Sequence record: NC_103192.1
Strand: one strand, 5' to 3'
Origin: a phage
DNA length: 64,000 nt
Below are positions 2,446 through 48,360 of this stretch, piece by piece. The first letter of the stretch is position 1; each line of letters opens with the position of its first letter. The notes under the pieces are model-generated. The model saw only the letters and a list, made by a program, of their open reading frames with translations. It had not been told where the DNA came from and made no database searches. Made by a program: the position numbers and the translations under genes.

Positions 2446-2512
2446 AAATTATCAACACAGGGGGTTGCAAAACCTCCTTTGGCGTGATAAAATAATCCAC
2501 ATGGGGAATAAG

Positions 2513-2932
2513 ATGCCACAGGAAGAAATGATTTCCTACGAAATCATCTACGAGCCTGACACTAAAGATGCTCACGGTGAGTGGATGAGTAAAGACACCA
2601 TCAAAAAGGCTAAAGATAACTGGGACGCAGCATACGCCGCAGGCCTAGTTTCTGAAAACCTTTTCCACTTGACCTCTACAGATGCTTTCACCATTGAAAA
2701 GACGTGGATTCAAGAAGAGTTTGATGTTGTAGTAATTGGTACTGAGCAGGTCATCAAGGCTGGCTCTTGGGTTGCTAAAGTTAAATATAACAATCCTGAA
2801 TTATGGGAAGCTAAGAAGGCTGGCATTGTTGGTGGACTAAGCATTCAGGCAACTGGTAATGTTGATGAAGAAACTGGAGAGATCACCAACGTAAACTTCG
2901 GGATCAGTGTTGTAGAAGAGGGCAATGAGTAA
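2513..2932 (+). CDS. XkdF-like protein (putative prohead protease or scaffold-associated)
   Basis: motif YEIIYEPDTKDAHGEWMSKDTIKKA resembles the XkdF/DUF2213 phage family; start uncertain (ATG at 2501, 2513 or 2528); stop overlaps next ATG (TAATG). Confidence 0.35.
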   Translation: MPQEEMISYEIIYEPDTKDAHGEWMSKDTIKKAKDNWDAAYAAGLVSENLFHLTSTDAFTIEKTWIQEEFDVVVIGTEQVIKAGSWVAKVKYNNPELWEAKKAGIVGGLSIQATGNVDEETGEITNVNFGISVVEEGNE

Positions 2933-3912: not shown

Positions 3913-3933
3913 TCTGCTTAATAGGGGAAAATA

Positions 3934-4308
3934 ATGATCACCACTCAATATTCTGATATCGTGCTCGGCAAAGTAGATGCAAGCGATGCAGGTTTCAACT
4001 TTAAAGAGATTGAAATTACCCTTACTGCTGATCACGTTGCTGGCGCAGTAGTTACCAAAACTGGCACTCTGGCTAATCAAGATGGCACAGATACCTTTGG
4101 TGTACTGGTTGACCGCGCTCTTCTGCCTGACGATTCTGGTAAAGTTAATCTGGCAGAGCCTCTGAAAGTTGGCGAGAAGTATAAACTGGTTGTTGCTGTT
4201 CGTGGCGTTACTTTCGCTAAAAAACATCTTAAAGTGGCTGGCGGCACGGCTGCACCTGCTGCAGTTCTGGAAGCTCTCGAAGCCAAAGGCAACAAAGTTC
4301 AGGAATAA
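3934..4308 (+). CDS. head decoration-like protein
   Basis: 124 aa, Gly/Ala/Val-rich small protein immediately upstream of the major capsid gene, lambda gpD-like position. Confidence 0.4.
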   Translation: MITTQYSDIVLGKVDASDAGFNFKEIEITLTADHVAGAVVTKTGTLANQDGTDTFGVLVDRALLPDDSGKVNLAEPLKVGEKYKLVVAVRGVTFAKKHLKVAGGTAAPAAVLEALEAKGNKVQE

Positions 4309-4354
4309 TCCTAGATCTTTGGGAAACAAATTTTAAAGTTATTTGGAGAAAATA

Positions 4355-5356
4355 ATGCGTAAAGATGATTTTGGTATTGTTGATTTAGGTGCTACTCTTG
4401 AACTGGTTCCGCGCCAATATCGCCTGATCACTGGTATGGATCTGTTTGAAACCCATCTCGGCACCTCAACAATCGCACAGATCGAACGTGTTGATGAAGT
4501 GGTTGGTGATATCGCCGCTCGCCGTCGTGGTGGTGAACGTAACTACGTTGATAGTGAACGTGCACAGATCAAAAACCTGAACATCCCGTTCTTCCCGCTG
4601 GATAAGGGCATTACTGCTGCGGACGTTCAGAACTTTCGTCGCTACTTCACCCCAGATGCACCGAAAACTGTGCAAGACGTGGTTACTCGTGTAGTTCGTC
4701 GTATTCGTCTGAGCCACGAAACCCTGCGTGAAAAAGCTCTTTTTTCTGCAATTCTGGGTAAATCCTATGCACCTGGTGACAAAACTTGCCAGTATGACTA
4801 TTACAAACTGTGGGGCGTTTCCCAGAAATCTATCGAAATCGATCCTAAAAATGCAGCACAGGACCCGATGGAAGTAATCGAAGATGCACGTCTGCACATT
4901 GCTCTGCAGGCTGGCGACAACGCTGGTGCTTACAACATCATCGCGCTGTGCTCTCCGAAATTCTTCTCTGCACTGGTTCATCATCCGCTGGTAGAGCTGG
5001 CTTACACCTACTACAGCTCTTCTCAGGAACCGCTGCGTCGTCGTCTGGGTGCAGGTGGCGAACAGAGCATTTACCGTGTGTTCGAACACAAAGGCATGAC
5101 CTTCATCGAAGACATCTCTGGTAACATTCCGGACGGTGAGGCTCGCCTGATGCCTATGGGTATCGATCAGATGTTCCAGCTGCACTTTGCTCCAGCTGAC
5201 ACTGTGGAAGATGCAAATACCCCAGCACAAGAACTGTATATGTGGTATAAACACTCTGCCTACCTGAGAGAACAGAAAATCGAATCTGAAACCTCTATGC
5301 TGGCAGTTAACACCCGTCCAGAGCTGGTTGTTAAAGCAACTCTGAAAAGTGAATAA
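4355..5356 (+). CDS. major capsid protein
   Basis: about 333 aa, ATG 4355 with GGAGA RBS (ORF track start 4343 is TTG); strongly biased codon usage; followed by the strongest intrinsic terminator in the window. Confidence 0.7.
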   Translation: MRKDDFGIVDLGATLELVPRQYRLITGMDLFETHLGTSTIAQIERVDEVVGDIAARRRGGERNYVDSERAQIKNLNIPFFPLDKGITAADVQNFRRYFTPDAPKTVQDVVTRVVRRIRLSHETLREKALFSAILGKSYAPGDKTCQYDYYKLWGVSQKSIEIDPKNAAQDPMEVIEDARLHIALQAGDNAGAYNIIALCSPKFFSALVHHPLVELAYTYYSSSQEPLRRRLGAGGEQSIYRVFEHKGMTFIEDISGNIPDGEARLMPMGIDQMFQLHFAPADTVEDANTPAQELYMWYKHSAYLREQKIESETSMLAVNTRPELVVKATLKSE

Positions 5357-10512: not shown

Positions 10513-12135
10513 ATGGCTAAATTGAGTGCAGAAAGGTTTATCGAAAAAGCTCGTAGGGTTCACGGAGATAAGTACGACTATTCTCTTATAGAATACAAAA
10601 CATGCAAAGATAAGATAGAAATAGTCTGCAATACCTGTGGTAACCACTTCAACCAGACACCGGATAACCATATAAATCTAAAAAGAGGGTGCCCTGTTTG
10701 TGGAGCTGAGAGATCTGCAAAATCAAGAAAGGGTAAGAAATTCCCCCATGAGCGTGGTAACAGGTGCACTACAGAAGAGTGGATCAAGAAGGTACTAAAA
10801 AGATACCCTGAAAATGCTGAAAAGTATGATTATAGTCATGTAGTGTACAAGACCTCTGGAGATAAGGTTGAGATTCATTGCAAAATGTGCGGAAGAATAA
10901 TGCACCAGAAACCTAGCAAGCATTTATCAGGGCAAGGATGCAAGACTTGCGCAGCAAGATCTGTTTCTGCGAAAAAAGTTCCTAGCTTCCAAGAAATAGT
11001 TGAGAGATGTGTAGAAGTGCATGGTAGTGATTATGAGTATTTTGAAGACTCTTATGTGAACACCTCAACACCTATGATGATGCGCCACAAAGAGTGTGGG
11101 AATATCTTCATGCAGCGTCCTGAATTCCATTACGGGAAAGGACAAGGATGCCCTCGTTGCTGTCGAAATCAGTCTAATGGTGAGAAAGAGCTCCTGACGT
11201 TCATTAAAAGTGTGTATAGCGGCGATATTGAAGAGAACGTGCGTATTCTGGACAACTTTAAGGATCCTTCCAAGAAAAAGATGGAGCTGGACATTTATGT
11301 TCCGGAGCTTAAGCTTGCTGTGGAATATAATGGTGCCTACTGGCACTCTGTAGACAGTAAGGGGAAATGGTACCACATCCTGAAAAGGAAGGCCTGTGAA
11401 AAACAAGGTATTCGCATGTTGTCTATCTGGGATTGTGATTGGCAGGATGCTCGGAAAAGACCTATCATTGAGAGATATCTCAAGAATGCTTTAGGAGTCA
11501 AAGACGAGAAGACCGTCTATGCCAGAAAGTGCACAGTTAAAGATGTGGACAATAAAACTTACCGTGACTTTATGGAGAAAAACCACATTCAAGGGTATGC
11601 CCCCGCCAAGGAAGTGAAGAAGGGTCTGTTTACATCTGACGGCGAACTGGTAGCTTGTATGAGTTTTAAAATACTGAAAAACAGAGATCAAAAGGTAACC
11701 CCTTTCGTTATGTGGGATATGGTAAGGTATGCAACAAGCTGTAACGTTCCCGGTGGGCGTAGTAAGCTGTTTAAGCATATCCGAGAAGAGTTTAAGATGG
11801 ATCATGTTCAATCCTTCCTTGACAGAGATTACTTCACAGGCGTGTCCTATAAGGAGGATGGCTGGATTTTGGCAGAGGACGATCAGGTGTCTACTAGCTT
11901 CTGGAGCTACCGTGGTGGCAGAATGCCGAGGCAGGCGTGGTGGAAGTCAAACATCCCAGAGACACTGAAGCATCTCGGGTTGGACGAGTCCTTATACGAT
12001 CCTGAGAAAACACAAGAGTGGAATGCCAAAAATGCAGGCTGCTATATCCTTGAAAACAGTGGCAACTCCCGCTTTGAATGGCACAGCGATGAAGGTAAAA
12101 ATGATCCTGCATACTTGGATTGGTTGAAAGGTTAA
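10513..12135 (+). CDS. free-standing homing-endonuclease-like protein
   Basis: 540 aa; three N-terminal repeats each with paired CxxC motifs (CNTCGN...GCPVCG; CKMCGR...GCKTC; HKECGN...GCPRCC); central ELDIYVPELKLAVEYNGAYWHS resembles a PD-(D/E)xK (Vsr-like) nuclease core; own promoter and terminator. Confidence 0.5.
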   Translation: MAKLSAERFIEKARRVHGDKYDYSLIEYKTCKDKIEIVCNTCGNHFNQTPDNHINLKRGCPVCGAERSAKSRKGKKFPHERGNRCTTEEWIKKVLKRYPENAEKYDYSHVVYKTSGDKVEIHCKMCGRIMHQKPSKHLSGQGCKTCAARSVSAKKVPSFQEIVERCVEVHGSDYEYFEDSYVNTSTPMMMRHKECGNIFMQRPEFHYGKGQGCPRCCRNQSNGEKELLTFIKSVYSGDIEENVRILDNFKDPSKKKMELDIYVPELKLAVEYNGAYWHSVDSKGKWYHILKRKACEKQGIRMLSIWDCDWQDARKRPIIERYLKNALGVKDEKTVYARKCTVKDVDNKTYRDFMEKNHIQGYAPAKEVKKGLFTSDGELVACMSFKILKNRDQKVTPFVMWDMVRYATSCNVPGGRSKLFKHIREEFKMDHVQSFLDRDYFTGVSYKEDGWILAEDDQVSTSFWSYRGGRMPRQAWWKSNIPETLKHLGLDESLYDPEKTQEWNAKNAGCYILENSGNSRFEWHSDEGKNDPAYLDWLKG

Positions 12136-22433: not shown

Positions 22434-25400
22434 ATGGCTGATATTAAAGTTGTCAGAATTGAATCTCTTCCTGCCACTACTGCAGTGACAGAGGATGATT
22501 ACCTGGTTGTTCAACAACCAGACCTGACCCGTCGTGTAAAAATTGGCGATGTTGTCCATGTGGATGGGACTGTTTCTCATGTAATCTCCTTTAAGGAAGG
22601 TGGTAAGTTAAACGGCCCAATGGATTTTGCCTACTTCGAAGAGGAAGACCTCTACCTGCGTTGGAAAGGCGAATTTCCGCACACCGTTCCTGCACTGTCT
22701 TCACCTTACGCTGATGGTGGGATTACCGATGCTGCATGGATGGTATATACAGATCCGTCCTTAAGGGAGGAGCTGGAGTCTACCATTGGCGCATCTATGA
22801 TCATGACAGCCGAAGGGCAGTCTGTCCAGGATGTAATGGATGTTACGGTTCAGACAGCCAACGATGCTAAAGCACTTGCACAGCGGGTAGATTTTGGTAC
22901 AGTGCATACTGTAGGCGATGTTATTCACCTTGTCAACTTTGTTGGTCCTGCAGTTATTGAAGAGGGAAGAACTACTAACTACCCTTCTGTAGCAGCTGGT
23001 GAAAAATTTCTGAACGGTGTGGTATCTCGTCGTGATACTACAACTGTTGATGGTATTTTCCGTGGTGCTACCTCTGGAGCCATGTATACCATTGCAGTAA
23101 CCAATGGTGTGGCAACAACAAAAAGAATAGCCCTTCGTGATGAATTTAAACGCCTGGAGGCAAACAACCCAACAAGAACAATTATCCGTGCCGGAGATGA
23201 TTTAAACACGGCAGGGTACTTGCAGCTTGATGCAACAGGTCGTTGGGGTATGTGGAACCAACAAACAGCCTCGTGGCAACCTCTTGCTATAGAGCAAGGC
23301 GGCACAGGGGCCAGAGATGCCGCAGGTGCACGCATTAATTTAGGGGCTTTCTATAAGCAACGTGCAGCCCTTGAGTCAAATTTTAATATCAATAACTTGA
23401 CTGGTAATCAGGATGGTATATACTACCAGCCGATGACTGCTTATGCAACTGAGGCAAATGGTTACCCTGCAGGTTCTGGTGCTGGTCACTTGATTGTCTG
23501 GCAGAACAATGCTAACGGCGGTACAGGTTGTCGTCAGGAATACTATCCATTCTCTAACGTAGATGTTTGGTATTTGAGAACCTATCAGGCCAACACAAAT
23601 CAGTGGACCGCATGGCAGCCGATGGTCAGACCTCGTAACGATGAGACCTTTAGATCGCACATCGGTCTTGGGTCTAGGAATTCTCCTACCTTCGGGAACC
23701 TTTACTTATCTCAAAGTTCTGCTAATGTTAAGTCGGCATCTGGCATTGTTAACGGGGACAAATACAGTGCTGACGGTGTCCTTGAGCATGGGTATAGGAT
23801 CTATTCCGAGGTAAGAGACGACAATAAGGCGTGGTTAACAATCCACCTGCACAAAGGGGCAAAAGGGTCTGAAACTCATAAATATTTAGGTTTCCGCGAA
23901 GACGGTGTATTAGACTGTCCTAAATACATGCAGGTTGGGGATCTTACTGGTCAGTTGACAAACTGGGGACTTGGAGAGTGGATTCGTAGCTCAGGAGCAG
24001 AAAGAGGCTTCTGGGGGTCCAAGAAAGCCGCCAAGATGGTCATCTGGGATGGTGGGATGGATGAGTCTGGTAACGGCACTCTGGAATGGGGTGTTTATAA
24101 CAACCGGAAGGCCAAGTGGGAACCTTTACCTCACGCCGCAGGTGGTACTGGGGCTACAACTTTAGCAGAAGCTCAAAACCTGTTTAGAATACCTATGGCA
24201 GGTGGGGTTAAGGATTTCTTAACTCTACCAAGAACAGCAGCCATGGTAGATGGTAAATATTACCCTATTATTGTAAGAACAGATCCGTACTATGCATCAG
24301 CTGTTGGGACAGATATTACAATAGTTACAAGATCCTCTGCTGGCGACGACCCTATGAACTGCGCAACACTCCAGTGTCATTACAGAACTGGTGGTTGGAC
24401 AGATCGTGGAGACTCTTTTACTGGTGTTGTAAACTTCTACCAGAACGAAAGAGCAATACTTGGCTGTGTTTCTCCTACTCGCGGAAAACAAGAGTATGTT
24501 GCTTTTTATGTAGAGGCTAGAGCTTTCCCGGTAAGCGTATATACAAGCCGAAACGTGCTTGAGGTATTTACCAGAGAAAATGACTGGCAGGTAGGGAATG
24601 TAACTGATAATCAGGACGGTGTTAAGTTTTGTGCTCCGTTAGAGTCGGCAGACTTAAATCTTGCGATCAAGGGTGGTGGTGTAACAAACACCAGACCTCT
24701 GGTTGAGTTCAAGGGAACACCTGGGTTCTATACAGGCGGTAGTACAGATCGGCACTATGTAGGCACACCTGACAGAATGGTTCTAATGAGTAAGACAGAA
24801 ATGCCTCCTGTAGAGATGTGGTACAACGGTCTTAACTACATTTGCCCAGGCAGCCAAACCACCAGGAAAGCACTGTTCTCTAACGCAGGGTTCCAAGCTG
24901 CATCGGAAGGAACAGAGGATCTGATCAACAATACCTTTACCTCTAAATGCGGTAATGGCGCTGGTCTCAAAGGTCAGGCAGAGTTCAGATCTACTCCAGA
25001 GGCTGGTCAAGTTATTGTTCGTGATGTTGTAGGTTCTGCTCACAGATTCTACAATTTCAATAAAGATGGTACTTTCTCAGCTCCTGGTGGTTTTGTATGT
25101 CATACTGGTGCAGACTGGAACAACCAGTTCGGGCCTAACAACCCGTCAAAAATAATGGCTGGCAACGTCAACGGGCCAGAAGGTTCGATGGTTGTTGGTG
25201 GACTGTCTGTGGCGTTTTCTGGGAATTATGCTTTCCAGATAGCTGGTCGCCTTGATCAGTTGTATACCAGATCTATCGAAGGTGGTACTCATAGACCGTG
25301 GAACAAAATCTTCTCACACAAAGGTGCAGGTCTTGACTCTACAGACCTAAACACTTACGATGGTACTCGTGAGGGCATTTACCACCAACCATTCGATGCC

Positions 25401-26249
25401 AACTCAACATCTGAAAGACATTACCCGGCACCATATGCTGGTCACCTAATTGTTTACCAGAACAATACAAACAATCCGAGAGGCTGCGTACAGGAGTACA
25501 TTACACGTTTTGGTGACAGATACACGCGTGTTGGTAACATGGATAGAACTGGTTCCACTTATATGTGGGAAGTTTGGCGGCATGATTCTGGTAAAGCTAT
25601 CCAGTTACGCCCGAACCGCAATGTTGATGAAACAGATAAAGAGCTGTGCATTCATGTTGGTGGTTCTGAAAATCCCAGCAACAACGGTAACTTACCTAAG
25701 GATAATGCTGTGCTCCATTATTGGGGCAACGGCAGCACAGGAAATCGTCCAAACGTGTTAGAGTTTAAGGTTCTTGACGATTCTCAAGCAAATTGGGTAT
25801 GGCATTGTGGTACCTTGCCGGATAAATCAAGATATCTTTCTGTAAACGGTGCAGTAAACTGTGTATCCGTGAACCAAAACTCTGACCGCGACCTGAAGGA
25901 TAACATAGAAGTTATTCCTAACGCGTTAGAAGCTATCCGGAAGATGAATGGCTATACCTACACTTTAAAAGAGAATGGTATGCCTTACGCAGGGGTAATT
26001 GCTCAAGAGGTTATGGAAGCATTACCTGAAGCGGTTGGATCTTTCGTGCAAAGGAAAGAGGCTCCTGATCCCACTCAAGATGGAACTCCTTTGATAACAG
26101 AGGAAAGATTCTACAGCGTGGATTACGCAGCTGTGACAGGCTTGCTTGTCCAAGTTTGTAGGGAACAGGATGATAAAATAACCGCCCTTGAGGAACAGGT
26201 TAAAAAATTGACAGAGGTTGTTACTGGGTTGCAAGAGAAACTGAAGTAA
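22434..26249 (+). CDS. long tail fibre with C-terminal intramolecular chaperone (peptidase S74-like) domain
   Basis: 1271 aa; N-terminal anchor shared with the 19130 gene product; C-terminal ~140 aa (...NQNSDRDLKDNIEVIPNALEAIRKMNGYTYTLKENG...) matches the self-cleaving chaperone domain of endosialidase/T5 L-shaped fibre type proteins. Confidence 0.7.
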   Translation: MADIKVVRIESLPATTAVTEDDYLVVQQPDLTRRVKIGDVVHVDGTVSHVISFKEGGKLNGPMDFAYFEEEDLYLRWKGEFPHTVPALSSPYADGGITDAAWMVYTDPSLREELESTIGASMIMTAEGQSVQDVMDVTVQTANDAKALAQRVDFGTVHTVGDVIHLVNFVGPAVIEEGRTTNYPSVAAGEKFLNGVVSRRDTTTVDGIFRGATSGAMYTIAVTNGVATTKRIALRDEFKRLEANNPTRTIIRAGDDLNTAGYLQLDATGRWGMWNQQTASWQPLAIEQGGTGARDAAGARINLGAFYKQRAALESNFNINNLTGNQDGIYYQPMTAYATEANGYPAGSGAGHLIVWQNNANGGTGCRQEYYPFSNVDVWYLRTYQANTNQWTAWQPMVRPRNDETFRSHIGLGSRNSPTFGNLYLSQSSANVKSASGIVNGDKYSADGVLEHGYRIYSEVRDDNKAWLTIHLHKGAKGSETHKYLGFREDGVLDCPKYMQVGDLTGQLTNWGLGEWIRSSGAERGFWGSKKAAKMVIWDGGMDESGNGTLEWGVYNNRKAKWEPLPHAAGGTGATTLAEAQNLFRIPMAGGVKDFLTLPRTAAMVDGKYYPIIVRTDPYYASAVGTDITIVTRSSAGDDPMNCATLQCHYRTGGWTDRGDSFTGVVNFYQNERAILGCVSPTRGKQEYVAFYVEARAFPVSVYTSRNVLEVFTRENDWQVGNVTDNQDGVKFCAPLESADLNLAIKGGGVTNTRPLVEFKGTPGFYTGGSTDRHYVGTPDRMVLMSKTEMPPVEMWYNGLNYICPGSQTTRKALFSNAGFQAASEGTEDLINNTFTSKCGNGAGLKGQAEFRSTPEAGQVIVRDVVGSAHRFYNFNKDGTFSAPGGFVCHTGADWNNQFGPNNPSKIMAGNVNGPEGSMVVGGLSVAFSGNYAFQIAGRLDQLYTRSIEGGTHRPWNKIFSHKGAGLDSTDLNTYDGTREGIYHQPFDANSTSERHYPAPYAGHLIVYQNNTNNPRGCVQEYITRFGDRYTRVGNMDRTGSTYMWEVWRHDSGKAIQLRPNRNVDETDKELCIHVGGSENPSNNGNLPKDNAVLHYWGNGSTGNRPNVLEFKVLDDSQANWVWHCGTLPDKSRYLSVNGAVNCVSVNQNSDRDLKDNIEVIPNALEAIRKMNGYTYTLKENGMPYAGVIAQEVMEALPEAVGSFVQRKEAPDPTQDGTPLITEERFYSVDYAAVTGLLVQVCREQDDKITALEEQVKKLTEVVTGLQEKLK

Positions 26250-26348: not shown

Positions 26349-26939
26349 ATGTTTTTATGGGAAAGGCCTAGATACCTTCCGGATATTAGATTGGAGCTGC
26401 TGGCAGATATTGTTACGTTTAAAAGTCCGTTTACAGGTAAAACGCAAAAAGTAACCTATGCCACACCTAATTGGAAAGGCACTTTGACGGTCTCTAATAT
26501 TAGCGAGTCACAGTTACTAGAGCTTAAGAGCTTTGTTGATCAGGTGTATAAAGATGGAAACATCTTTCTTATTAAAACTTACGGTCACTCAGTAACAGCT
26601 AATGAGCCAATCGCCCTTGGGCCTACTGGTAACGACGATTTTTTGAAGACGGTTGGGTGGGAGCCGAACAGAGACATAGCCAGAGCTGGGGATAAAATAT
26701 CTGTCAATGATGAGTTGAAAGTGGTAACAGCTCCAGTACGCAGCGATGGTGTGGGGGCTGCTGTTATAAGCATATCTCCAAGACTTAGAAAACCTATTGC
26801 CGCAGGGGATACTATGAAGATAATAACTCAATCTCCGAAGGGCAGGTTTCATATCAGGGATATTTATAAAATTAAGCAAAAAGTCGATGCTATGCAAAAA
26901 GGTGATAATATAGTTATCAACTTCTTTGAGGATTTCTAA
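26349..26939 (+). CDS. hypothetical tail tip protein
   Basis: 196 aa, GGAGG RBS; first gene of a four-gene block ending with the J-like protein. Confidence 0.4.
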   Translation: MFLWERPRYLPDIRLELLADIVTFKSPFTGKTQKVTYATPNWKGTLTVSNISESQLLELKSFVDQVYKDGNIFLIKTYGHSVTANEPIALGPTGNDDFLKTVGWEPNRDIARAGDKISVNDELKVVTAPVRSDGVGAAVISISPRLRKPIAAGDTMKIITQSPKGRFHIRDIYKIKQKVDAMQKGDNIVINFFEDF

Positions 26940-26940
26940 G

Positions 26941-27492
26941 ATGATTAGAGCGCCATTAGATAATTTATTTCTTGAAAAGCTGGAGCTTGATGGTGTTGAG
27001 ATCTTAATTGCTGCAAAGTTGGAGCTACCGACAGGAACTGTCAGGGTGTGTTCAGGAACCGGTGTTGTAGTAATTGAGGGGCAACATTTTATAGGGATAG
27101 GTGGATCAGCAACATTAACTGCTGTGTCTGAGAAAGATGCCACCAACTTCGGATCTGTGGTAGCGACATTGAACGGGTTTGATCCTAAGTATGTGGGTGA
27201 TCTACTGAAGACGGAGTATTCTGGTTGTCGTGCCACGTTGTACATTACCGCTATGGAGAATGGTCTGCCTGTTACAACCAATGGCTTGTTTGACGGCCTT
27301 ATAACAGATATGGCTATTCAGACAGGTGAGAATAGTGCTTTGTCCATATCCATCTCTTCCATCTTCAACAGTTGGTTAAGAGGTTTTCCTTATCGGTACA
27401 CGGAGGAAAGCCACAGCTCAAGAAACGATAATGACAGATTTTTTAAATATGTGGATCAGGTGGCGAGCCGCCCGATCATTTGGGAGGTTTAA
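26941..27492 (+). CDS. hypothetical tail tip protein
   Basis: ATG 26941 with GAGGA RBS (track start 26926 is TTG). Confidence 0.4.
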   Translation: MIRAPLDNLFLEKLELDGVEILIAAKLELPTGTVRVCSGTGVVVIEGQHFIGIGGSATLTAVSEKDATNFGSVVATLNGFDPKYVGDLLKTEYSGCRATLYITAMENGLPVTTNGLFDGLITDMAIQTGENSALSISISSIFNSWLRGFPYRYTEESHSSRNDNDRFFKYVDQVASRPIIWEV

Positions 27493-27917
27493 TGAGCACA
27501 CGCCCTCGTTTAGTGGATTGGCAAGAAAGATTGTGGAAAGTGTTTGACGAAGAGGCCACCATACCTTTTGAATGGGGATTCCACGATTGCTGCACCTTTG
27601 CAGCTAAGTGTGTTGATGCCCAATACGGAACAGATTTTCTTTCTAACTTCGAAGGAACGTATAAAACAGAGTTGGAAAGCAAAAGATGGTGCATGCTCCG
27701 TTTCAAAACCACACACCTGCCTACTATTTTTGATCTCTTTATGACTCGACTAGATACTCCTAAACAGGTTCAGCGTGGCGATATTGTTATCTTCGAGGGT
27801 CTGAACGGGCTCACCGCTGGTGTGTTCTGGAACAACCAGATTTGGGCGAAAGGTGATAAAGGGGTCTTTATGTTCGATATGAAAGATTCTATCGTTGTTG
27901 ATGTCTGGAGGTATTAA
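27492..27917 (+). CDS. NlpC/P60-like tail protein (gpK-like)
   Basis: 141 aa; Cys motif WGFHDCCTFAAKC and later GDIVIF...G resemble the papain-like NlpC/P60 catalytic core; ATG 27492 with GGGAGG RBS. Confidence 0.45.
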   Translation: MSTRPRLVDWQERLWKVFDEEATIPFEWGFHDCCTFAAKCVDAQYGTDFLSNFEGTYKTELESKRWCMLRFKTTHLPTIFDLFMTRLDTPKQVQRGDIVIFEGLNGLTAGVFWNNQIWAKGDKGVFMFDMKDSIVVDVWRY

Positions 27918-30900
27918 TGCCAATTGCAATGATTGATAACATCGTTGCTTCTGCAAGATCTTCAAGTTATGACTGGAACGCATCCAAGGCAGCTCTGGCT
28001 GACAGCCTGAACACTGTTACCACCAGAACTCTGGATAAGATTTTCGAAGGAAACAAATCTTACAGGAGTCAGCAAGATAGACAAAAACTTCTCAGATCTT
28101 CTGCTGCACCTTGCTCTGTAGTGTATGGGAAGACACGCACATCTGGGTTGCTTGCGTTTTTGGAGCAGGACAGGGACAGAACCCTTCATTGTGCTATTGT
28201 TCTTGCCAATCATCCCTTGGAAGGTATAGAAGATATACTTATCGACGGTAATCCTATTTCTTCGTATGGCGATTTGGTATCGTGGGAGTTACATACCGAC
28301 AGGAAAACCTCTGATCCTTTCATGGGCACACACTGCCCTTCATGGTCACCAGACATGATAGGCAGAGGGATCAGTTGGCTACGTGCCAGCTTCAAGTTTG
28401 ACCCTAACAAGTTTCCTTTTGGGTTGCCAAACGTTACACTTGTCAAGGTTGGTAAAAAATGCTATGATCCTCGTATCAGTAAAGAGGTGTATACCAATAA
28501 CGCGGCCTTGGTGATCCTAGACTATTTAAGAACGTACCTCAAATGTCCTGACGAAACCATTAACTGGGAGTCCTTCAAGGAGGCTGCCAACATATGCGAC
28601 GAGGCGGTAAAAAACGCTGACGGAACCAGTGAGCGACGTTACACCATTAACGGTGAGTTTGACATGGATGAGGCCCCAGCAAGCATTATGGCAGAAATGC
28701 TGAAAGCTTGTGGTGCAGATCTCAGCTATGTAGCTGGTAAGTATGGTTTGCTGGTTGGTGCATACTATGGCCCGGCAACAATGACACTGAGTGAGGATTG
28801 TGTCTGTGGTGAGGTCAAGATCTATCCGGAAGCCTCATTTGACAAAAGATCCAACACAATAACTGGCAGATTCACCAGTCCTACCAAAGGGTATTCTGAA
28901 ACAGATTTTCCATCAGTGTTTGTCCCAGAGTGGATAGAGAAGGATGGAGAAAGAAAGATAATCGATATAGACTATCGCTTTGTTACCAGCCCTTATCAAG
29001 CTCAGCGTGTTTCTGCAATCTTCTTAAGACGTGCCAGAGCTGGCAGGATTATTGAAGTCACCTGCAATATGCGAGGTTTTAAATTTAAGCCTGGCCGTTA
29101 TGTTACAATGGACCTCCCAAGTATTGGTATAGTGGGCCAAGAAATGAGGGTTCTTGAATGGGAGTTTACCAAAAAGGGTGGTGTCAAGGTAAAACTCCGT
29201 CAAGATGCTAAAGAGTGGAATGATGCCACAGGGCAACTTCCGGATTCTGGCGATGTAGATATTCCGATATCTCCATCTGGTGTAGCTCAACCGCAAAACT
29301 TCAGATATTCCGTTCTCCAAGCTGGAGAAGTAACTCACGGTGTTTTGGCTTGGGACAACGTTGGGACCTACGCTCAAAATATTGTGCAGGTAAGAAAGAA
29401 CGGAGAGATTGTTTGGACAGCACAAACAGTTGAGCAGTTTGTCCGAGTAGAAGGCTTGACCAAAGGGTCATACACAGCAACCGTGGTTGCAACATCTTAT
29501 AAAGGTGGCGTATCTCCGGAAGCATATTGTGAGTTCAACATTCAGGCACCTGAAGCTCCTGTTTCTGTAGAGGTTAAGCAAGGATACTTTGCTATCACCT
29601 TGATTCCGCATAGTAGGGATTTAGCAAGTGTTAGCACTCAGTACGACTTTTGGACATCTGGGATGACAAGATTGCCAGATACCAGTGATGCAACCGTTAC
29701 TTCAAAAGCCACCCGCATGGGTGTTGGTTCAACTTGGACATCTGAAGGTCTGCAGAACGATAAGATTTATTATTGGTATATTCGAACCACAAATGCTTTT
29801 GGTAGTTCTCAGTTTGTAGAGTGTGCTGCACGCTGCTATACCTCCATTGAAGATTTGATGCCTCAGATAGATGCTGAATTTAAAAAGACAGAAACTTATA
29901 AAGAGTTGATGAGCACTTTAGATTCCTCTATTGAAGAGGTTGAAAATCGTGTCACAGAACTTAACAAGTACATGGACGGAAGGGTAGATGAGGCATTCCA
30001 ACAACTTGGGGATAGGATAGGTGCTGTAGTTACAGAGACAACTCAGAAGTTTGAGGATGTCAATGGCAATATTACAGCGCTGGATAAGAAACTTGTTGCT
30101 GCACAGAACAAGTTCACCAACGATCTGAACACTGAAAGTGGAAGACTGGCATCCCTGATTGAGACAACCAATAAAGCAACCACTGATCTTCTGAACAAAA
30201 AGACAGAGGCTTTAGACGAGAAATTGGTTGCAGCCAAAGGGGAGTTGGTAGAACAAATAGGTGGAGTGGAGAGCGGATACCTTGCCGGAGATAAAACTCT
30301 GGATGGCAAGATCAATACCCAGAGAACAGAACTTGACGCAAGCATCTTGAGCACCAATAAGGCGACAGTGGATCTTCTTAACAGGACCTCTGAAACTCTG
30401 GATCAAAAGATCAGTCAGACAAACGCGACGGTATCTAAGAACTATACCACCCTTGACGGTAAGATAACTACCGCAAAAACTGATCTCAATACCTTGATTG
30501 CCAATACCAACAAGGCTACCACAGATTTGTTGAATCAGAAAACCTCTGCACTGTCAGAGCAGATAACTTCTGCACGTGGGGAGATTTCTACCAACAAACA
30601 GGCGATTAAGGATTTGGATGGGAAGCTGACCTCCACAAAAACAGCACTGGACGCTACAATCTCCGATACCAACAAAGCAACTGTGGATCTTATTAACGGC
30701 ACAGCGTCAGCTATTCGTCAAGAACTTGCTGTTGCTAAGCAGGAGATCATTAATGATGTTGGGGATGTATCAGAGCTAAGAGCTGCAGTGGCTACAACAT
30801 CTAAGGCTGTGACCGACTTAGAGGGCAAAGTAAATGCTCAATGGGGCACAAAAATACAGGTAGACTCCGCAGGGAATAAGTATGTGGCAGGTATCCAATT

Positions 30901-31756
30901 GGGCATGGAAGGCTCTGGAGGCCAAGTTCAATCATACTTCATGGTTAGTGCAAACAACTTTGCGGTATACAACCCCGGAAATGGAACAGCAACCCTTGCT
31001 TTCGCAATCAAGAACAACCAAGCGTTCTTGAAAGATGCTTTTATAGAGAACGGGACGATCTCTTCTGCCAAGATTGCACAAGAAATTTCGTCAAACAACT
31101 ACGATGGCAACGGGTACCATAAATACGGTCGGTATATTAACAAGAACGGGCACGCCCAGTTTATGGATGTGTGGGTGAAAGGTAATATCAACGCTAGTGC
31201 AGGTAACTTCACAGGGGCAGTTAACGCCACCAGTGGTACCTTCCGTGGAGATGTTTATGCCAATAATGGTAGCTTTAGAGGCACCATAGATGCAACAGGA
31301 GGTACATTCCGTGGACGTGTAGAAGCTTCCGTTATCCGTGCTAACCAGTTCGAAGGTGCAATCGTTGCACATAGGACCTATGGTGACTGCCCTCCGGTAT
31401 ATAACTCGCAGCAGAGGGTTTGCCGTTGGAGGTGGAGATATGTGGACAACGTGCAAGGCCAAGGTAAAAACGTAACATTCTTCTTTAAACTGAACGGTAC
31501 TCGTGCCAACTCTCAACTAAATGCGTGGATAGCTGGTCACCAATTACTTGCTGGCAAGAAGTACGGAAACGATAACGATGGCATGTGTGCAGTTGGGATA
31601 ACAGGTCTAGGTGAACAAACTATAGACATTATTATCGAGATTTACACACCATGGTCAACAGGGAACGTGACAGGCATTACAATATCTTGTCCTACAGTCG
31701 TTGTAAGTCGTTCTAACTCAAGTTTCCAAGGTCCTTGGAATGAGTCTCACGACTAA
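27917..31756 (+). CDS. lambda-J-like central tail fibre / host specificity protein (Phage-tail_3 domain)
   Basis: 1279 aa; N-terminal region (SVVYGKTRTSGLLAFLE...LHCAIVLANHPLEGIEDILIDGNPI...GRYVTMDLPSIGIVGQEMRVLEWEF) matches the gpJ-type domain pattern; central tandem coiled-coil repeats; Gly-rich C-terminus. Confidence 0.65.
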   Translation: MPIAMIDNIVASARSSSYDWNASKAALADSLNTVTTRTLDKIFEGNKSYRSQQDRQKLLRSSAAPCSVVYGKTRTSGLLAFLEQDRDRTLHCAIVLANHPLEGIEDILIDGNPISSYGDLVSWELHTDRKTSDPFMGTHCPSWSPDMIGRGISWLRASFKFDPNKFPFGLPNVTLVKVGKKCYDPRISKEVYTNNAALVILDYLRTYLKCPDETINWESFKEAANICDEAVKNADGTSERRYTINGEFDMDEAPASIMAEMLKACGADLSYVAGKYGLLVGAYYGPATMTLSEDCVCGEVKIYPEASFDKRSNTITGRFTSPTKGYSETDFPSVFVPEWIEKDGERKIIDIDYRFVTSPYQAQRVSAIFLRRARAGRIIEVTCNMRGFKFKPGRYVTMDLPSIGIVGQEMRVLEWEFTKKGGVKVKLRQDAKEWNDATGQLPDSGDVDIPISPSGVAQPQNFRYSVLQAGEVTHGVLAWDNVGTYAQNIVQVRKNGEIVWTAQTVEQFVRVEGLTKGSYTATVVATSYKGGVSPEAYCEFNIQAPEAPVSVEVKQGYFAITLIPHSRDLASVSTQYDFWTSGMTRLPDTSDATVTSKATRMGVGSTWTSEGLQNDKIYYWYIRTTNAFGSSQFVECAARCYTSIEDLMPQIDAEFKKTETYKELMSTLDSSIEEVENRVTELNKYMDGRVDEAFQQLGDRIGAVVTETTQKFEDVNGNITALDKKLVAAQNKFTNDLNTESGRLASLIETTNKATTDLLNKKTEALDEKLVAAKGELVEQIGGVESGYLAGDKTLDGKINTQRTELDASILSTNKATVDLLNRTSETLDQKISQTNATVSKNYTTLDGKITTAKTDLNTLIANTNKATTDLLNQKTSALSEQITSARGEISTNKQAIKDLDGKLTSTKTALDATISDTNKATVDLINGTASAIRQELAVAKQEIINDVGDVSELRAAVATTSKAVTDLEGKVNAQWGTKIQVDSAGNKYVAGIQLGMEGSGGQVQSYFMVSANNFAVYNPGNGTATLAFAIKNNQAFLKDAFIENGTISSAKIAQEISSNNYDGNGYHKYGRYINKNGHAQFMDVWVKGNINASAGNFTGAVNATSGTFRGDVYANNGSFRGTIDATGGTFRGRVEASVIRANQFEGAIVAHRTYGDCPPVYNSQQRVCRWRWRYVDNVQGQGKNVTFFFKLNGTRANSQLNAWIAGHQLLAGKKYGNDNDGMCAVGITGLGEQTIDIIIEIYTPWSTGNVTGITISCPTVVVSRSNSSFQGPWNESHD
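30064..30790 (+). repeat. tandem ~50-aa coiled-coil repeats inside the J-like gene
   Basis: repeated unit ...LDGKI.T.KT.L...I..TNKAT.DLLN... at least four times at protein level, with correspondingly similar DNA units. Confidence 0.5.
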
Positions 31757-33362: not shown

Positions 33363-34049
33363 ATGGCAGAGATTAAGTCGGATGTTAACCACATCCACAC
33401 TCTGCCAGATTTTGTTCAGGGGGGTCTTGATTACCTCCCTGGGGATTTTCTGGCTGAGAAGGTTAATTTAGTCACATTCTTAACCGTATACCTTAAAAGG
33501 TTGGAGAATGTTGATAAAATGCTGGTAGGCTTGGCTGAAGGAAGATTGCTTAACAATGCCAGCGGGAGATACCTTGACGAAGTTGGTAATCAACTTGGTA
33601 TTCTTAGGAATGGTCTTTCAGACGCGGATTTTCGTGCTACGCTGATTATTCAGCAGGCAGCATCATCAAGAGGTGGTACTCGCGAAGATGTCATCTCCAC
33701 CTTGCGACAATTGTTCGGAAGAGACAATTTCGATACGTGGAAAGGTGACAACTTTAGATTTGACATAAATATTAGAAAAACTTGCTTCGACATATTACAG
33801 TCCATCGATCAGATCTTAGATATGCTGCCATTGCCTTGTCATTTGCGTCTTACAGAATCGCAAGGGCAAGCTTTTGGTTTTGAAGGAGACTCTACAGCTC
33901 TTGGCTTCGGATCAGTGTGGGAAGAAAACCAGTTCGGAGTTGGTGGGCTGGCTACTTTGCTGTATGTTCCTGACGTAAGACCTGATTGGGACACCACAAC
34001 TATTTATTGTGAAAGTATTACAGTAAACGCAACTAGACAGGAGGGTTAA
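33363..34049 (+). CDS. putative baseplate wedge protein (gpI-like)
   Basis: 228 aa, immediately downstream of the J-like baseplate gene; synteny only. Confidence 0.4.
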   Translation: MAEIKSDVNHIHTLPDFVQGGLDYLPGDFLAEKVNLVTFLTVYLKRLENVDKMLVGLAEGRLLNNASGRYLDEVGNQLGILRNGLSDADFRATLIIQQAASSRGGTREDVISTLRQLFGRDNFDTWKGDNFRFDINIRKTCFDILQSIDQILDMLPLPCHLRLTESQGQAFGFEGDSTALGFGSVWEENQFGVGGLATLLYVPDVRPDWDTTTIYCESITVNATRQEG

Positions 34050-36121
34050 TGGCAACAGCTGTTTTTAAACCTTACCGTGATTACTCTACGATGGCTGCAC
34101 GGTTTCATTACCGCACAGTTCAGGATACTGCAGTTCCAGGTAGGGATTATGATCATGTTGAGGGAGATGTAACTATCCCGGTTGGAGCAACCAGTATTGA
34201 GATCCCTGTAGAAATTGTTGACAAATTGCCAAACAGGTTGCCAAGAAGCTTCTTTATGGAGTTTTCATCAAACTCCCAAGGGGTTATGATTGGAACACAA
34301 AGAGCGAAATGTACAATAGTTTCAGATGAGAATCTTGACAGAATATCTTGGGATACCGTTGAGGAGAGAATGTTTCACCCAAGATATTGGGTTACAACCA
34401 CACAGCAGACTGAAAGCACCTGCATTGTTGCGGATAATAACTGCTGTATTAACCGTTTAGTGTCAAGAACATATGGAGGCATGGCTGGGTGCATTTGGGA
34501 AACAGTTGACAAGTATGACCATTTCGGCATTGGATTTGATGATCACTACGAGATGAGAAACACCAAGCTTTGGTTCAGAATGTCAATAACCAATGCCAGC
34601 AACTTCTCCACCCCTGAAAAGATGATTATGACTGTAGACCTTGTTGACGGCACAATCATCTATGTTCCTTTAGCTCAATATGCTGTCAGCATCTCAGAGG
34701 ATAAGAATGTTGCAGAAATTCATATTGATTTCGAGGACTGCGTCGGGATGGACCAGAACAACAATATGATGGGTGTTGATCCTCGGCAGGTGAGAAAGAT
34801 TTTAATACCGCTTATGCCTAAAGATTGGGTAAGTAATAGCACAGACCCAAGAACGGAAAATGTAGAGTGCGAGTTGCGTCTAGATCTGCTTCAGCCGGAC
34901 ACAGGCTGGAAAATGATGCAACTTAACAATATCCAGGTGAAAGAGCACGACGTCGGGATCTGCACAGCATATGACGATATGTGGAACGTATCCCCTTTAA
35001 GGGTGTTGAGCAATATCAAGCGTCTGGGCTATACCGGAACCATAAATCATTATGTTGGTATGAGTCATTATTATGACTACACATGGTCAGGAACCCAATG
35101 GTCTATAAACAAAACAGGGGCTCTAAACGCTGCAGCTTATAAATGGCATGATGATTTTATGTACAATGCCAAACGACATGACTTCGACGTTATGCAGTCT
35201 GTAAGCTTCGAGCTTTATAGCGATGCCTGTCCGTTGGAATGGACCCAGAGAGACTGGAACGATAACTACGCTAAAACAGGATATACACCTTGTAGCTACC
35301 TCCTGTCTCCAACCATTGAAGAGGGTATGAATTTCCTTACTGCAGTATTTAAGAATTTTGCATCAGCCGCTATGAGAAACAACCTGCCAGTGATTATGCA
35401 GGTTGGTGAACCGTGGTGGTGGTACAATACCGATACTCGTAGACCTTGTATTTATGATTACCCTACAAAGCAGGCGTTTTATGATGAGACAGGTGAGTAT
35501 GCATTAGATATTGGGACTATTGACGATCCTAAAACTGGTGGTGTTTACGACAAGTATGTAGCATTTTGTCGTGGTAAGCTTGGCGCTCGTATTGCGGCTA
35601 TTTCAAAGGCAATAAAAGCACACGCTGCATCGGCTCAGATGACAGCTTTACTGTTTTTCCCCACTATTATGGAAACCGAGCTTACGCAAAAACTGAACCT
35701 TGCTGACCAATATAAAAAGGAAGCAGGCGCTCTTGATTTCTTCTGCACTGAGTGCTACGATTGGGTGATGCAGGGAGGTATTGAAAAGGCAAAAGAGTCT
35801 GTAAACATACCTATCGTTAAGTTAGGTTGGAAACCGTCTGAAATACAATACCTTGCAGGGTTCGTTCCTAGCAAAGAGCTTGCTCCGGTATATGGCTACG
35901 ACCCAACCAGGAATTACCAAGAATTTTTATGGAGATGTATTTGCGGAAACATGGCAACCATAGAGTATAGATACCCTGAGGTAAAACAGTATGTGTGGGC
36001 ATACCCGCAAGTAATGTCTGACAGCATCACTGTTACCGCCAGAGATTCTACCGTGCTTCATATGGGACAGGTTGCTCTGAAAGGGTATGTAGAAGATGTT
36101 GTCCCGCCAGACTTCTCATAA
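34049..36121 (+). CDS. tail fibre/spike protein with N-terminal Calx-beta-like domain
   Basis: 690 aa; residues ~15-95 (FHYRTVQDTAVPGRDYDHVEGDVTIPVGATSIEIPVEIVDK) fit the Calx-beta pattern; Trp/Tyr-rich C-terminal body. Confidence 0.5.
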   Translation: MATAVFKPYRDYSTMAARFHYRTVQDTAVPGRDYDHVEGDVTIPVGATSIEIPVEIVDKLPNRLPRSFFMEFSSNSQGVMIGTQRAKCTIVSDENLDRISWDTVEERMFHPRYWVTTTQQTESTCIVADNNCCINRLVSRTYGGMAGCIWETVDKYDHFGIGFDDHYEMRNTKLWFRMSITNASNFSTPEKMIMTVDLVDGTIIYVPLAQYAVSISEDKNVAEIHIDFEDCVGMDQNNNMMGVDPRQVRKILIPLMPKDWVSNSTDPRTENVECELRLDLLQPDTGWKMMQLNNIQVKEHDVGICTAYDDMWNVSPLRVLSNIKRLGYTGTINHYVGMSHYYDYTWSGTQWSINKTGALNAAAYKWHDDFMYNAKRHDFDVMQSVSFELYSDACPLEWTQRDWNDNYAKTGYTPCSYLLSPTIEEGMNFLTAVFKNFASAAMRNNLPVIMQVGEPWWWYNTDTRRPCIYDYPTKQAFYDETGEYALDIGTIDDPKTGGVYDKYVAFCRGKLGARIAAISKAIKAHAASAQMTALLFFPTIMETELTQKLNLADQYKKEAGALDFFCTECYDWVMQGGIEKAKESVNIPIVKLGWKPSEIQYLAGFVPSKELAPVYGYDPTRNYQEFLWRCICGNMATIEYRYPEVKQYVWAYPQVMSDSITVTARDSTVLHMGQVALKGYVEDVVPPDFS

Positions 36122-46991: not shown

Positions 46992-47192
46992 TTAGTAGTA
47001 TTCCCAACACGACCCATCTTCAGACGGCTGGACACGCTTACCTTCATGATCGACATAGGTGTAACCACAGCCTTCACAAATAACAGGTGCTGCATAGCCT
47101 TCCTTCCACTGATCCTCAGTGATCAATCCTTTCAGATCTCCGCAGTCACTACCAAACAACTCTTCAGAACAGTCTTTACAAAAATCAGCCAT
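46992..47192 (-). CDS. small Cys-rich protein (zinc-ribbon-like)
   Basis: 66 aa with CxxC...C and CEGCGY motifs; GGAGA RBS. Confidence 0.45.
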   Translation of the reverse strand: MADFCKDCSEELFGSDCGDLKGLITEDQWKEGYAAPVICEGCGYTYVDHEGKRVQPSEDGSCWEYY

Positions 47193-47261
47193 CTCTATCA
47201 GTCTCCATATTTAACCAATCTATATTACATATTGCCGAAGAAACAGTATTTCATTTCATCA

Positions 47262-47480
47262 TCACAGATCTCCAACAACTTCCCAAATACCCCAGTGAGC
47301 ATCTATATCCTTGATAAAGTATCTTTCTCCACGGTTTGTCCACACACCTATCCCAACTTTACCATCTATCCCATTGTATACATCTGCCTCATACTCTTTG
47401 CCCGGTGTAAAGTGTACACCCATCATAAGGGCTGTTATTCCATTAGGATTTTTAAATTTAACAAATTTTACTTTGCTCAT
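47262..47480 (-). CDS. hypothetical protein
   Basis: 72 aa, AAGGA RBS, tightly packed with neighbours. Confidence 0.4.
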   Translation of the reverse strand: MSKVKFVKFKNPNGITALMMGVHFTPGKEYEADVYNGIDGKVGIGVWTNRGERYFIKDIDAHWGIWEVVGDL

Positions 47481-47481
47481 A

Positions 47482-47811
47482 TTACTTAATCCTTGCAGTT
47501 ACAGTAGCGCTATACCCTATGTAGTTATGAGACATAAAGAATGTAAGCCCTTTAAGTTCAGGATTCTTTCTAAGAAATCGTTTCAATTTTCGAATGCAAT
47601 TAACACCATGATCATAATTTGAGAAATTAAATTTAATACCCTGCTCCATCATAGTACACACTTCTTCATGGGTATGCCATTGTCTATCGTGGTCACAAAA
47701 CCAGTAACCAATACCTTCTTTTTCTTGGATATGCAATCCCCAAAATACTTTATGCATTGGATATTTTGGTTTTCTACCATGATAATGTAGTTTAATATTC
47801 ACATGTGCCAT
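47482..47811 (-). CDS. hypothetical His-rich protein
   Basis: 109 aa, GGAG RBS. Confidence 0.4.
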   Translation of the reverse strand: MAHVNIKLHYHGRKPKYPMHKVFWGLHIQEKEGIGYWFCDHDRQWHTHEEVCTMMEQGIKFNFSNYDHGVNCIRKLKRFLRKNPELKGLTFFMSHNYIGYSATVTARIK

Positions 47812-47844
47812 TTTTTGTTACTCCGTTCTGTATCTGTGATAATG

Positions 47845-47874
47845 AGAATAGCAAACTGGGGTGTGTGCTGTCAA
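47845..47874 (-). promoter_or_regulatory. internal promoter on minus strand TTGACA-18-TATTCT
   Basis: reverse complement of 47869-47874 is TTGACA; -10 is reverse complement of 47845-47850. Confidence 0.4.
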
Positions 47875-47979
47875 CAACATTTTTAAGCGTTTTGGGGAAG
47901 TTTTTTGAAAGGTGGGTGTAATCACAAGAGAGGGTGGAGTTGTTGAAGGCACAGGCCTCTTTTGAGGCCTTAAAATCGA

Positions 47980-48360
47980 TTATGACACTTTGACGTAGCG
48001 CTCTGACAGAGCTGGAAAGCCAAAAGCAGTACCTATACTACCGTATGCTACCCACCATTGAAGTTCATCGTGACACCATTTTCCGATCAGGAAGGTGCTG
48101 GGGTAGCGGGTCAGTATTTTGGCATAAGCTTTAGGATCTGCATCCTCTGGGATAATGATACTTGGAACATCTTTGTTATGACCACAGCAGCAGTTTAGAG
48201 TTTTCAATCCTGCCGCCCATAGACTCATGATAGGCTTAGCCATGCACTTATCAAGGCACACACGTTTTTTGCCGTCACGGAGCTTTTTAGGCACATCAAC
48301 GATAACATTTTGATGCTTGGCACCTTTCACTTTCCAATTATAGGATTTACACTTGCACAT
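47980..48360 (-). CDS. Cys-rich hypothetical protein
   Basis: 126 aa with CKCK...C.DKC...CCCGH motifs suggesting metal binding; GGAGA RBS. Confidence 0.45.
   Translation of the reverse strand: MCKCKSYNWKVKGAKHQNVIVDVPKKLRDGKKRVCLDKCMAKPIMSLWAAGLKTLNCCCGHNKDVPSIIIPEDADPKAYAKILTRYPSTFLIGKWCHDELQWWVAYGSIGTAFGFPALSERYVKVS

Follow-up and report, generated by a model that had tools for sequence, protein, structure and literature searches.

Four related helical units, probably old and stable in number, in the shaft of a J-like tail protein of an rV5-like coliphage

The stretch of phage DNA analysed here (sequence record NC_103192.1; 64,000 nucleotides (nt), called the window throughout) encodes, in one open reading frame (ORF), a J-like tail protein of 1279 amino acids (aa), and the long, predicted alpha-helical shaft of this protein contains four consecutive units with the core TNKAT(T/V)DL(L/I)N. 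We interpret the shaft, with a probability of about 0.7, as an anciently duplicated, strongly constrained and phase-preserving helical module, whose length alleles serve as exchangeable cassettes and which is not a present-day substrate for recombination. According to this explanation, the shaft between the immunoglobulin (Ig)/fibronectin type III (FNIII) domains and the beta-prism would have been lengthened, in comparison with that of phage lambda, by tandem duplication of a helical unit of 44–62 residues, each unit with the polar core motif TNKATxDLLN. The duplications would be old, the protein pattern having been held by selection and the synonymous sites having been randomised; since this leaves no DNA homology for recombination or slippage, the copy number would be stable within a lineage. 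The gain or loss of a unit would alter the length of the shaft by about 6.6–9.3 nm, with the hydrophobic seam unbroken. A recombinational mechanism may have acted in the origin of the units long ago, and not at the present locus.

Repeat units in the protein and in the DNA

The region 30064–30790, where an earlier note based on the letters of the DNA had placed tandem repeats inside a J-like gene, lies in frame within the plus-strand ORF and corresponds to residues 716–958. The J-like nature of the protein is borne out by its family matches (Ig_J_second, 1.8e-31; Phage_Tail_Tip, 8.3e-37; phrog_31, 3.8e-162). The consecutive units are likewise confirmed: four cores are found at residues 751, 813, 864 and 918, with spacings of 62, 51 and 54 residues (Table 1). 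The first unit is made up of a short type of 44 aa and a Gly-rich extension of 18 aa. When 41-aa units are anchored on the core, their pairwise identity is 32–51%, and the autocorrelation of the protein sequence has peaks at lags of 51, 105, 113, 62 and 54 residues (z = 4.4–7.4, against a 95th percentile of the shuffle maximum of 3.5). A hidden Markov model (HMM) built from the units gives 57–65 bits for each of the four. The repeat is thus real at the protein level and well beyond chance.

A fifth core-like segment (TTSKAVTDLEG, residues 960–970) is weak and reaches only 4.4 bits with the unit HMM. The junction helix VSELRAAVATTSKAVTDL, by which the shaft leads into the beta-prism, is conserved across J-like proteins and shows a faint likeness to the unit core, and the sequence AAIQTTSQAVTSLDG of the F2-pyocin fibre aligns to it. 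Outside the genus Vequintavirus, the only significant matches of the unit HMM (16.1 and 13.0 bits) fall exactly on the junction helix of the proteins P0117 and P0059, which hints that the units derive from the junction helix. TNKAT units themselves were found with this HMM in Vequintavirus proteins only; none was found outside the genus, including the J protein of the lambdoid phage mEp554 (28% in a tblastn match).

The DNA gives a different picture from the "similar DNA units" of the earlier note. The pairwise identity of the units is 46–60% in nucleotides, and at third codon positions it is near random, being 27–37% in five of the six unit pairs and 51% in the pair of units 2 and 4; the autocorrelation of third positions across the units was not significant. 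Tandem Repeats Finder (TRF) reported no array in the region. Within the shaft, no exact direct repeat exceeds 11 nt (longest repeat in shuffled sequences: mean 9.4, maximum 13), and over three alleles, namely those of the window and of the phages ECP32 and Murica, the longest exact repeats are 11–15 nt (12–15 nt in the ECP32 and Murica alleles), against a shuffle maximum of 12–13 nt. In the dot-plot that had been proposed as a check, the sole DNA-level signal with a 30-nt window is the 30-nt core, with 22–25 matches of 30; outside the core motif, the similarity exists at the protein level only. Head-to-tail copies of high nucleotide identity, such as make up a tandem DNA repeat, are not found. 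In E. coli, efficient recombination of the RecA type needs about 20–30 bp of perfect homology, and the exact repeats of the units are shorter than this. TRF did find a 10-nt tandem repeat (2.1 copies) at 31696–31716, near the 3' end of the gene, that is unrelated to the units.

Copy number among relatives

When the region was searched by tblastn in 50,697 phage records, three bands of identity appeared: about 57 records at 90% or above with equal length, 14 at about 73%, and about 45 at about 40%, in the last of which 337 residues of the query correspond to just 257. Representative genes encode 1279 aa (window), 1381 aa (ECP32) and 1199 aa (Murica), and a count by motif and HMM gives four units in the rV5/FV3/window type, six in the ECP32 type and three in the Murica type. 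The alignment of the three alleles is essentially gap-free and near-identical at residues 1 to about 665 and from about 958 to the end, and all of the length differences lie between. In ECP32, 88 aa are inserted in register as two further 44-aa units of the unit-1 type, and the Murica allele consists of two short units and the last unit. The extra units of ECP32 have a DNA identity of only 62–64%; together with the shortness of the exact repeats, this indicates that the duplications of ECP32 and Murica are also old.

Within the four-unit type the length does not change. In a megablast search with the 948-nt shaft, 57 of 57 four-unit records matched 948 to 948 nt (or 945 to 945), at identities of 86.6–98.9%, and the full genes of the window, rV5, MiataMamis and Aya all encode 1279 aa (4/4) with no insertion or deletion. 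Codon analysis of the window against the last three gave ratios of non-synonymous to synonymous divergence (dN/dS) of 0.012–0.092 at dS = 0.38–0.62 for the shaft, and of 0.016–0.10 at dS = 0.39–0.82 for the unit region alone. A fixed length at such substantial divergence, combined with low dN/dS, indicates that the number of units is stable and that the sequence is under strong purifying selection. Forms with two or five units were found neither among the phage records (tblastn) nor among the metagenome-derived proteins checked with the unit HMM.

The comparison of repeat number among related isolates, also proposed in the earlier note, therefore has two sides. The counts do differ, by whole units, between alleles (three, four and six), but they are invariant in all 57 four-unit records; the variation separates only deeply diverged alleles, and copy number does not vary among close relatives. 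With no exact stretch longer than 11 nt, with randomised synonymous sites and with no change of length in these 57 records, the units do not behave as the substrate for recombinational expansion or contraction that had been proposed. Within the four-unit class, both outcomes that the earlier note had named as refuting its idea were obtained.

Two observations on the database records may be added. Eighteen GenBank records of the MG0656xx series, named "Campylobacter phage" and with the host label Campylobacter jejuni, carry the rV5-type gene at 92–94% identity; by sequence these are rV5-like coliphage genomes, and the Campylobacter label looks doubtful. In the phage Alma (OV101294.1, vB_Eco_Alma), which has an allele of the three-unit type, the J-like gene (1581–5181) is annotated as two overlapping coding sequences (1581–3923 and 3910–5181) that are split inside the shaft, owing to either a frameshift or a sequencing error.

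Helical periodicity and length of the shaft

AlphaFold2 (AF2) was run on the monomer with an alignment of 24 sequences (mean local confidence score, pLDDT, 61; predicted TM-score, pTM, 0.26). It predicts helices at residues 659–788 and 794–948 and strands from about residue 956, with pLDDT values of 70–87 over residues 809–929 or so. In a Foldseek search with this model, the beta-prism part matched the lambda gpJ central fibre (8xcj/8xci, E = 9e-8), and nothing informative was obtained for the helices.

The hydrophobicity of the shaft has one sharp periodic peak, at 3.62–3.64 residues, in all three alleles (power 199–243, against a shuffle maximum of at most 109). In the window the power is 203 at 3.63 residues (shuffle maximum 79) and 1.9 at 3.50 residues, and unit 1 reads cleanly as rows of 11 residues. 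So the "coiled-coil repeats" of the earlier description are indeed helical and periodic, but their period is 3.63 residues and not the 3.5 residues of a classical heptad coiled coil. This coherent period points to a straight or hendecad-like bundle, and homology suggests a parallel trimer.

At 3.63 residues per turn, the unit lengths come close to whole numbers of turns (44 aa, 12.1; 47 aa, 12.95; 51 aa, 14.05; 54 aa, 14.9; 62 aa, 17.1), and the same is true of the net differences between alleles (80 aa, 22.0; 102 aa, 28.1). Such lengths are expected if the gain or loss of units must keep one continuous hydrophobic seam. With a rise of 0.15 nm per residue and full extension, shafts of three, four and six units would measure about 37, 50 and 65 nm. 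The shaft would act as a spacer and transmit a signal.

Divergence within the gene and probable exchange of alleles

The codon-aligned identity between the three alleles is 90–100% outside the shaft and 44–70% within it. The boundaries of this island lie near residues 620–690 and 964–1008 in the comparison with Murica, and near residues 690 and 920 in that with ECP32. The interval 28502–29131 (residues 196–405) is 100% identical to Murica in nucleotides, and elsewhere in the gene the identity is 90–97%, yet the shaft alleles of the two differ; the gene is thus a mosaic, which is a sign of recent recombination within it. When about 50 kb of tail genes of the window were compared with Murica and ECP32, only two strong islands appeared, namely 24001–26000 and the shaft of the J-like gene. 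This agrees with the allelic variation of large fibre genes in the genus that is visible at the level of alignment plots in the BASEL paper (PMC8594841). Judging from the identity profile, each length allele most likely moves as one whole cassette, by homologous recombination in the flanks.

The other island, 24001–26000, is the C-terminal half of a 1271-aa tail fibre (Tail_spike_N and Peptidase_S74; ortholog of rV5 gp41), for whose window allele no phage record was more than 87% identical. A matching of lengths between the shaft class and this fibre was considered and dropped; the fibre has many alleles, and their distribution does not follow the shaft class.

Two further differences from both Murica and ECP32 were seen elsewhere in the window. 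A segment of about 1.6 kb that is missing from both genomes contains a 540-aa ORF (10513–12135), situated between two ORFs of 157 aa, for which the only family found, with a weak match, is DUF4379 (treble-clef zinc finger); the segment may be a mobile insertion. In a second indel island, at 47001–48000, 14–44% of the bins align and there are small ORFs without Pfam matches.

Gene and domain organisation

rV5-like E. coli phages match the 3840-nt ORF from end to end, with about 94% nucleotide identity to B9-1, FV3 and rV5 (genus Vequintavirus), and on this sequence basis the window is assigned to an rV5-like (Vequintavirus) E. coli myophage. The ortholog in rV5, gp37, is of equal length (1279 aa; 93.8% nucleotide identity); it is a virion protein seen by mass spectrometry, and a likeness to the hub protein 3CDD was obtained for it by HHpred (PMC3606486). 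The repeat units, the counts of three, four and six, and the helical periodicity are not described for rV5 gp37 and its Vequintavirus orthologs in PMC3606486 and PMC8594841.

The match to phrog_31 ("central tail fiber J") spans residues 143–1135. Ig_J_second (PF24489) is above its cut-off at residues 547–652, and Ig_J (PF24421), at residues 493–545, reaches 24.8 bits and is under its cut-off of 29; Pfam Phage-tail_3 had no match in the 1279-aa protein. Two FNIII/Ig-like domains before the shaft, and a helical shaft followed by the Phage_Tail_Tip beta-prism, as in proteins of the lambda gpJ/T5 pb3 type, are therefore both present. The C-terminal domain (residues 1098–1279) is presumed, from its position alone, to be the receptor-binding end. 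Two minus-strand ORFs that overlap the repeat region (30043–30357 and 30212–30406) are without support and were taken as spurious.

Table 1. Features of the J-like tail protein gene and its upstream neighbours (positions in the window; AF2, AlphaFold2)
Feature	Residues	Position	Strand	Basis or remark
Dit-like gene		26349–26939
Tail protein gene		26941–27492
DUF6950 gene		27492–27917
Lambda-gpJ/T5-pb3-like tail protein gene, rV5 gp37 ortholog	1–1279	27917–31756	+	ORF, nucleotide identity, PHROGs
Hub-like region	245–472	28649–29332	+	weak phmmer match to T5 baseplate hub protein pb3 (8hqz/7zhj residues 526–752), E = 3e-4
Two Ig/FNIII-like domains	Ig_J 493–545, Ig_J_second 547–652	29393–29872	+	Pfam, lambda gpJ alignment
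Alpha-helical shaft (predicted)	643–958	29843–30790	+	AF2 helices, hydrophobic period, lambda alignment
Unit 1 (62 aa)	732–793	30110–30295	+	core TNKATTDLLN, nt 30167–30196; HMM 64.7 bits
Predicted helix break (LAGDK), within the G-rich stretch GGVESGYLAGDKTLDG	789–793	30281–30295	+	AF2 DSSP gap between model helices 20–149 and 155–309, pLDDT <50
Unit 2 (51 aa)	794–844	30296–30448	+	core TNKATVDLLN, nt 30353–30382; HMM 63.5 bits
Unit 3 (54 aa)	845–898	30449–30610	+	core TNKATTDLLN, nt 30506–30535; HMM 57.1 bits
Unit 4	899–958	30611–30790	+	core TNKATVDLIN, nt 30668–30697; HMM 60.9 bits
Junction helix, leading into the beta-prism	951–968	30767–30820	+	unit HMM in register, 4.4 bits
Phage_Tail_Tip (DUF1983, PF09327) beta-prism domain	957–1097	30785–31207	+	Pfam 8.3e-37, AF2 strands from ~956
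C-terminal distal domain	1098–1279	31208–31753	+	near-identical in 3-, 4- and 6-unit alleles

A siphovirus-like module (26349–31756), set within a myovirus cluster of baseplate and fibre genes, ends with the J-like gene. In the cryo-electron microscopy study of phage phi92, no J-like homolog was placed in the virion. Downstream of the wedge genes of the window, a protein of 690 aa (34049–36121) matches PF23845 (1e-79), PF23844 and Calx-beta; the name of its family, "non-contractile tail sheath protein" (TIM-barrel, N-terminal domains), is unexpected for a contractile-tailed phage.

Comparison with known systems

The closest framework is given by lambda gpJ (PDB 8iyk, 8xci and 8xcj), which shares the order of domains, namely hub (weakly matched in the window protein), FNIII/Ig, helical shaft, Phage_Tail_Tip beta-prism and distal domain, and which can be aligned to the window protein on both sides of the shaft. 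With phmmer, residues 497–682 of the query correspond to residues 666–848 of gpJ, and residues 959–1115 to 846–990, so that residues from about 683 to 958 are without a lambda counterpart. In lambda, the alpha-helical shaft (residues 809–861) lies between FNIII-2 and the beta-prism as a three-helix bundle clamping the FNIII trimer, and residues 841–861 turn to beta-sheet upon binding of LamB (PMC11101478). By position the two shafts are equivalent, but the lambda shaft has about 53 residues and no internal repeats, whereas that of the window has about 316 residues in which the four units are found, and is about 270 aa longer. Furthermore, the tail of lambda is non-contractile and the window phage is a myovirus (Vequintavirus) with a separate hub gene, and the window protein lacks a counterpart to roughly the first 170 or more residues of lambda J.

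In the central fibre of the F-type pyocins (F7, PMC12874032; F2, PDB 25vf), a long helical trimeric segment likewise comes immediately before the same beta-prism domain, on its N-terminal side. The window protein and the F2 fibre share the junction helix (AAVATTSKAVTDLEGKVNAQW versus AAIQTTSQAVTSLDGNVKAMY), and periodic features of about 11 residues are held in common. The F7 segment is reported to be a trimeric coiled coil of 163 residues that converts wholly to beta-prism and bears side fibres (PMC12874032). It differs from the window shaft in being Ala-rich, and a repeating motif like TNKAT is not described for the pyocin coil in the accessible text of PMC12874032; the docking of side fibres and the two-state behaviour of the pyocin are both not known for the window phage protein.

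The sole solved protein that matches the repeat region by itself is the tail needle gp26 of the P22 family (PDB 4lin; E = 5e-4, residues 809–930). The match is one to coiled-coil-like sequence only; the two proteins share no terminal domains and have different roles in the virion, and common ancestry is not established. gp26 forms a fibre of trimeric coiled coil, in which segments such as LDGRVTTAE recur.

A search for homologs with the shaft alone gave three matches and was swamped by coiled-coil-like candidates, and it was rerun with the flanking domains. In the 163 J-like proteins collected, the spacer between Ig_J_second and Phage_Tail_Tip ranges from 65 to 2476 aa, with a mode of 50–99 aa; this spread marks the shaft as a general site of expansion in the family. 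In four giant members (P0006 and P0008–P0010; 2265–3273 aa), the same Ig_J_second and Phage_Tail_Tip domains surround a middle part of 1338–2476 aa, but this contains other repeats (ALxxRVTxxEGxITSQ type) and inserted globular domains such as CBM_4_9, and no match to the TNKAT unit HMM.

Weighing of the explanations

Several points tell against an old, phase-preserving spacer of exchangeable length. A separate baseplate hub is also encoded in these myophages (gp045 in Murica, upstream), and in the BASEL annotation the gene is a lateral tail fibre; the axial, "central fibre" role as a spacer is inferred by analogy with siphophage homologs only. The placement of gaps within repeats is ambiguous, so that "whole-unit" insertions and deletions are read from unit counts and total lengths, and the exchange of cassettes is read from the identity profile of three genomes. 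The AF2 monomer, computed from a shallow alignment, breaks at residues 789–793, where the rod could fold back. Finally, the three alleles together have 13 units, and all 13 keep ten contiguous core residues, some of them at positions that are expected to be solvent-exposed; this conservation exceeds what the packing of helices needs and hints at an additional function.

If the shaft did fold back at the Gly-rich break (residues 782–797), it would form an antiparallel helical bundle about half as long. The low confidence of the model at the break, the clustering of six Gly in residues 775–797 and the similar lengths of the two predicted helices (130 and 155 residues) would all suit such a bundle. 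However, the hydrophobic phase is coherent over the whole shaft, with its single sharp peak at 3.63 residues, the Murica allele is without most of the Gly-rich segment, and the solved homologous shafts are parallel trimers; the AF2 model itself has a pTM of 0.26. We regard a folded-back shaft as unlikely, although it survives better than the explanations that follow.

Another explanation makes the shaft a metastable fold-switch, which on binding of the receptor would pass from helix to beta-prism; the fibre would become shorter and set free energy or a trigger signal, and the number of units would determine the stroke. The position is the same as in the known cases, directly N-terminal to the Phage_Tail_Tip beta-prism "seed" (PMC12874032; PMC11101478), and a long helix directly before this seed, as in the fold-switch class of He et al. 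2026, is present. The abundance of beta-branched and polar residues in the shaft (T 13.9%, N 7%, V+I 11%) and the faint likeness of the unit core to the conserved junction helix are also in its favour. In contrast, the fold-switch signature SxSxxMxxLxS is not enriched in the shaft (5 windows against 4.7 expected, z = 0.1) in a crude scan of our own, which differs from the structure-based alignment of those authors; the same crude scan gave z of at least 2.6 in seven of nine other J-like rods (range over the nine, 0.6–4.6), and three of the five matches in the shaft lie within residues 921–959. AF2 predicts helix, but a monomer with a shallow alignment is a condition that favours helix. Moreover, the contractile sheath already supplies the energy of the phage, and the repeats have no sequence match to the pyocin coil beyond the junction. 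On this evidence the repeats are not assigned to the fold-switch class, and we consider a switch of this kind improbable. The same doubtful standing has its fullest version, in which the TNKAT units would be copies of the junction helix and the shaft of about 300 residues a collapsible, multi-unit fold-switch spacer, which, with a stroke set by the number of units, would clear the fibre or trigger the baseplate on receptor binding.

Alternatively, the TNKATxDLLN cores might be docking sites for another trimeric fibre or adaptor, the number of units setting the number of accessory fibres. The conservation of the ten core residues at presumably exposed positions would be accounted for, there is a precedent in the side fibres of the F7 pyocin, which attach to a short segment of the coil (PMC12874032), and Vequintaviruses bear several sets of fibres (PMC8594841). 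But the surrounding tail gene content is identical in genomes with three, four and six units, the class of the shaft is not matched by the alleles at the second strongly variable fibre gene, and the bundle itself might just as well use the conserved polar core as one of its structural layers. Layers with Asn in the core are a feature of trimeric coiled coils. Docking thus appears slightly less probable still than a fold-switch.

The weakest explanation, that similar DNA repeats are now undergoing unequal recombination or slippage and that fibre length varies within populations as at a contingency locus, could draw on the counts of three, four and six among Vequintavirus lineages, on the extra 88 aa of ECP32 being exactly two 44-aa units in register and on the 22–25 matches kept in the 30-nt core, but it is very improbable in view of unit DNA only 46–64% identical even when the extra ECP32 units are included, third positions near random, exact repeats (11–15 nt) at about the chance level, no TRF array, one and the same length in 57 of 57 records at up to 13% nucleotide divergence, no insertion or deletion at dS = 0.4–0.8, and no form with two or five units in the phage records or the metagenome-derived proteins checked.

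Conclusion

The idea of an unstable repeat is thereby corrected: the variation in this shaft is ancient allelic diversity, and not ongoing expansion and contraction. The analysis provides a modular map of the shaft, with the boundaries of the units, their phase-preserving lengths and three natural length alleles between conserved flanks. With it, fibres could be designed to a chosen length, or experiments planned on how adsorption depends on the spacing between baseplate and distal domain. Finally, the positional homology to the shafts of lambda and the pyocins, which change fold on receptor binding, makes the idea of a fold-switch testable in a contractile phage.

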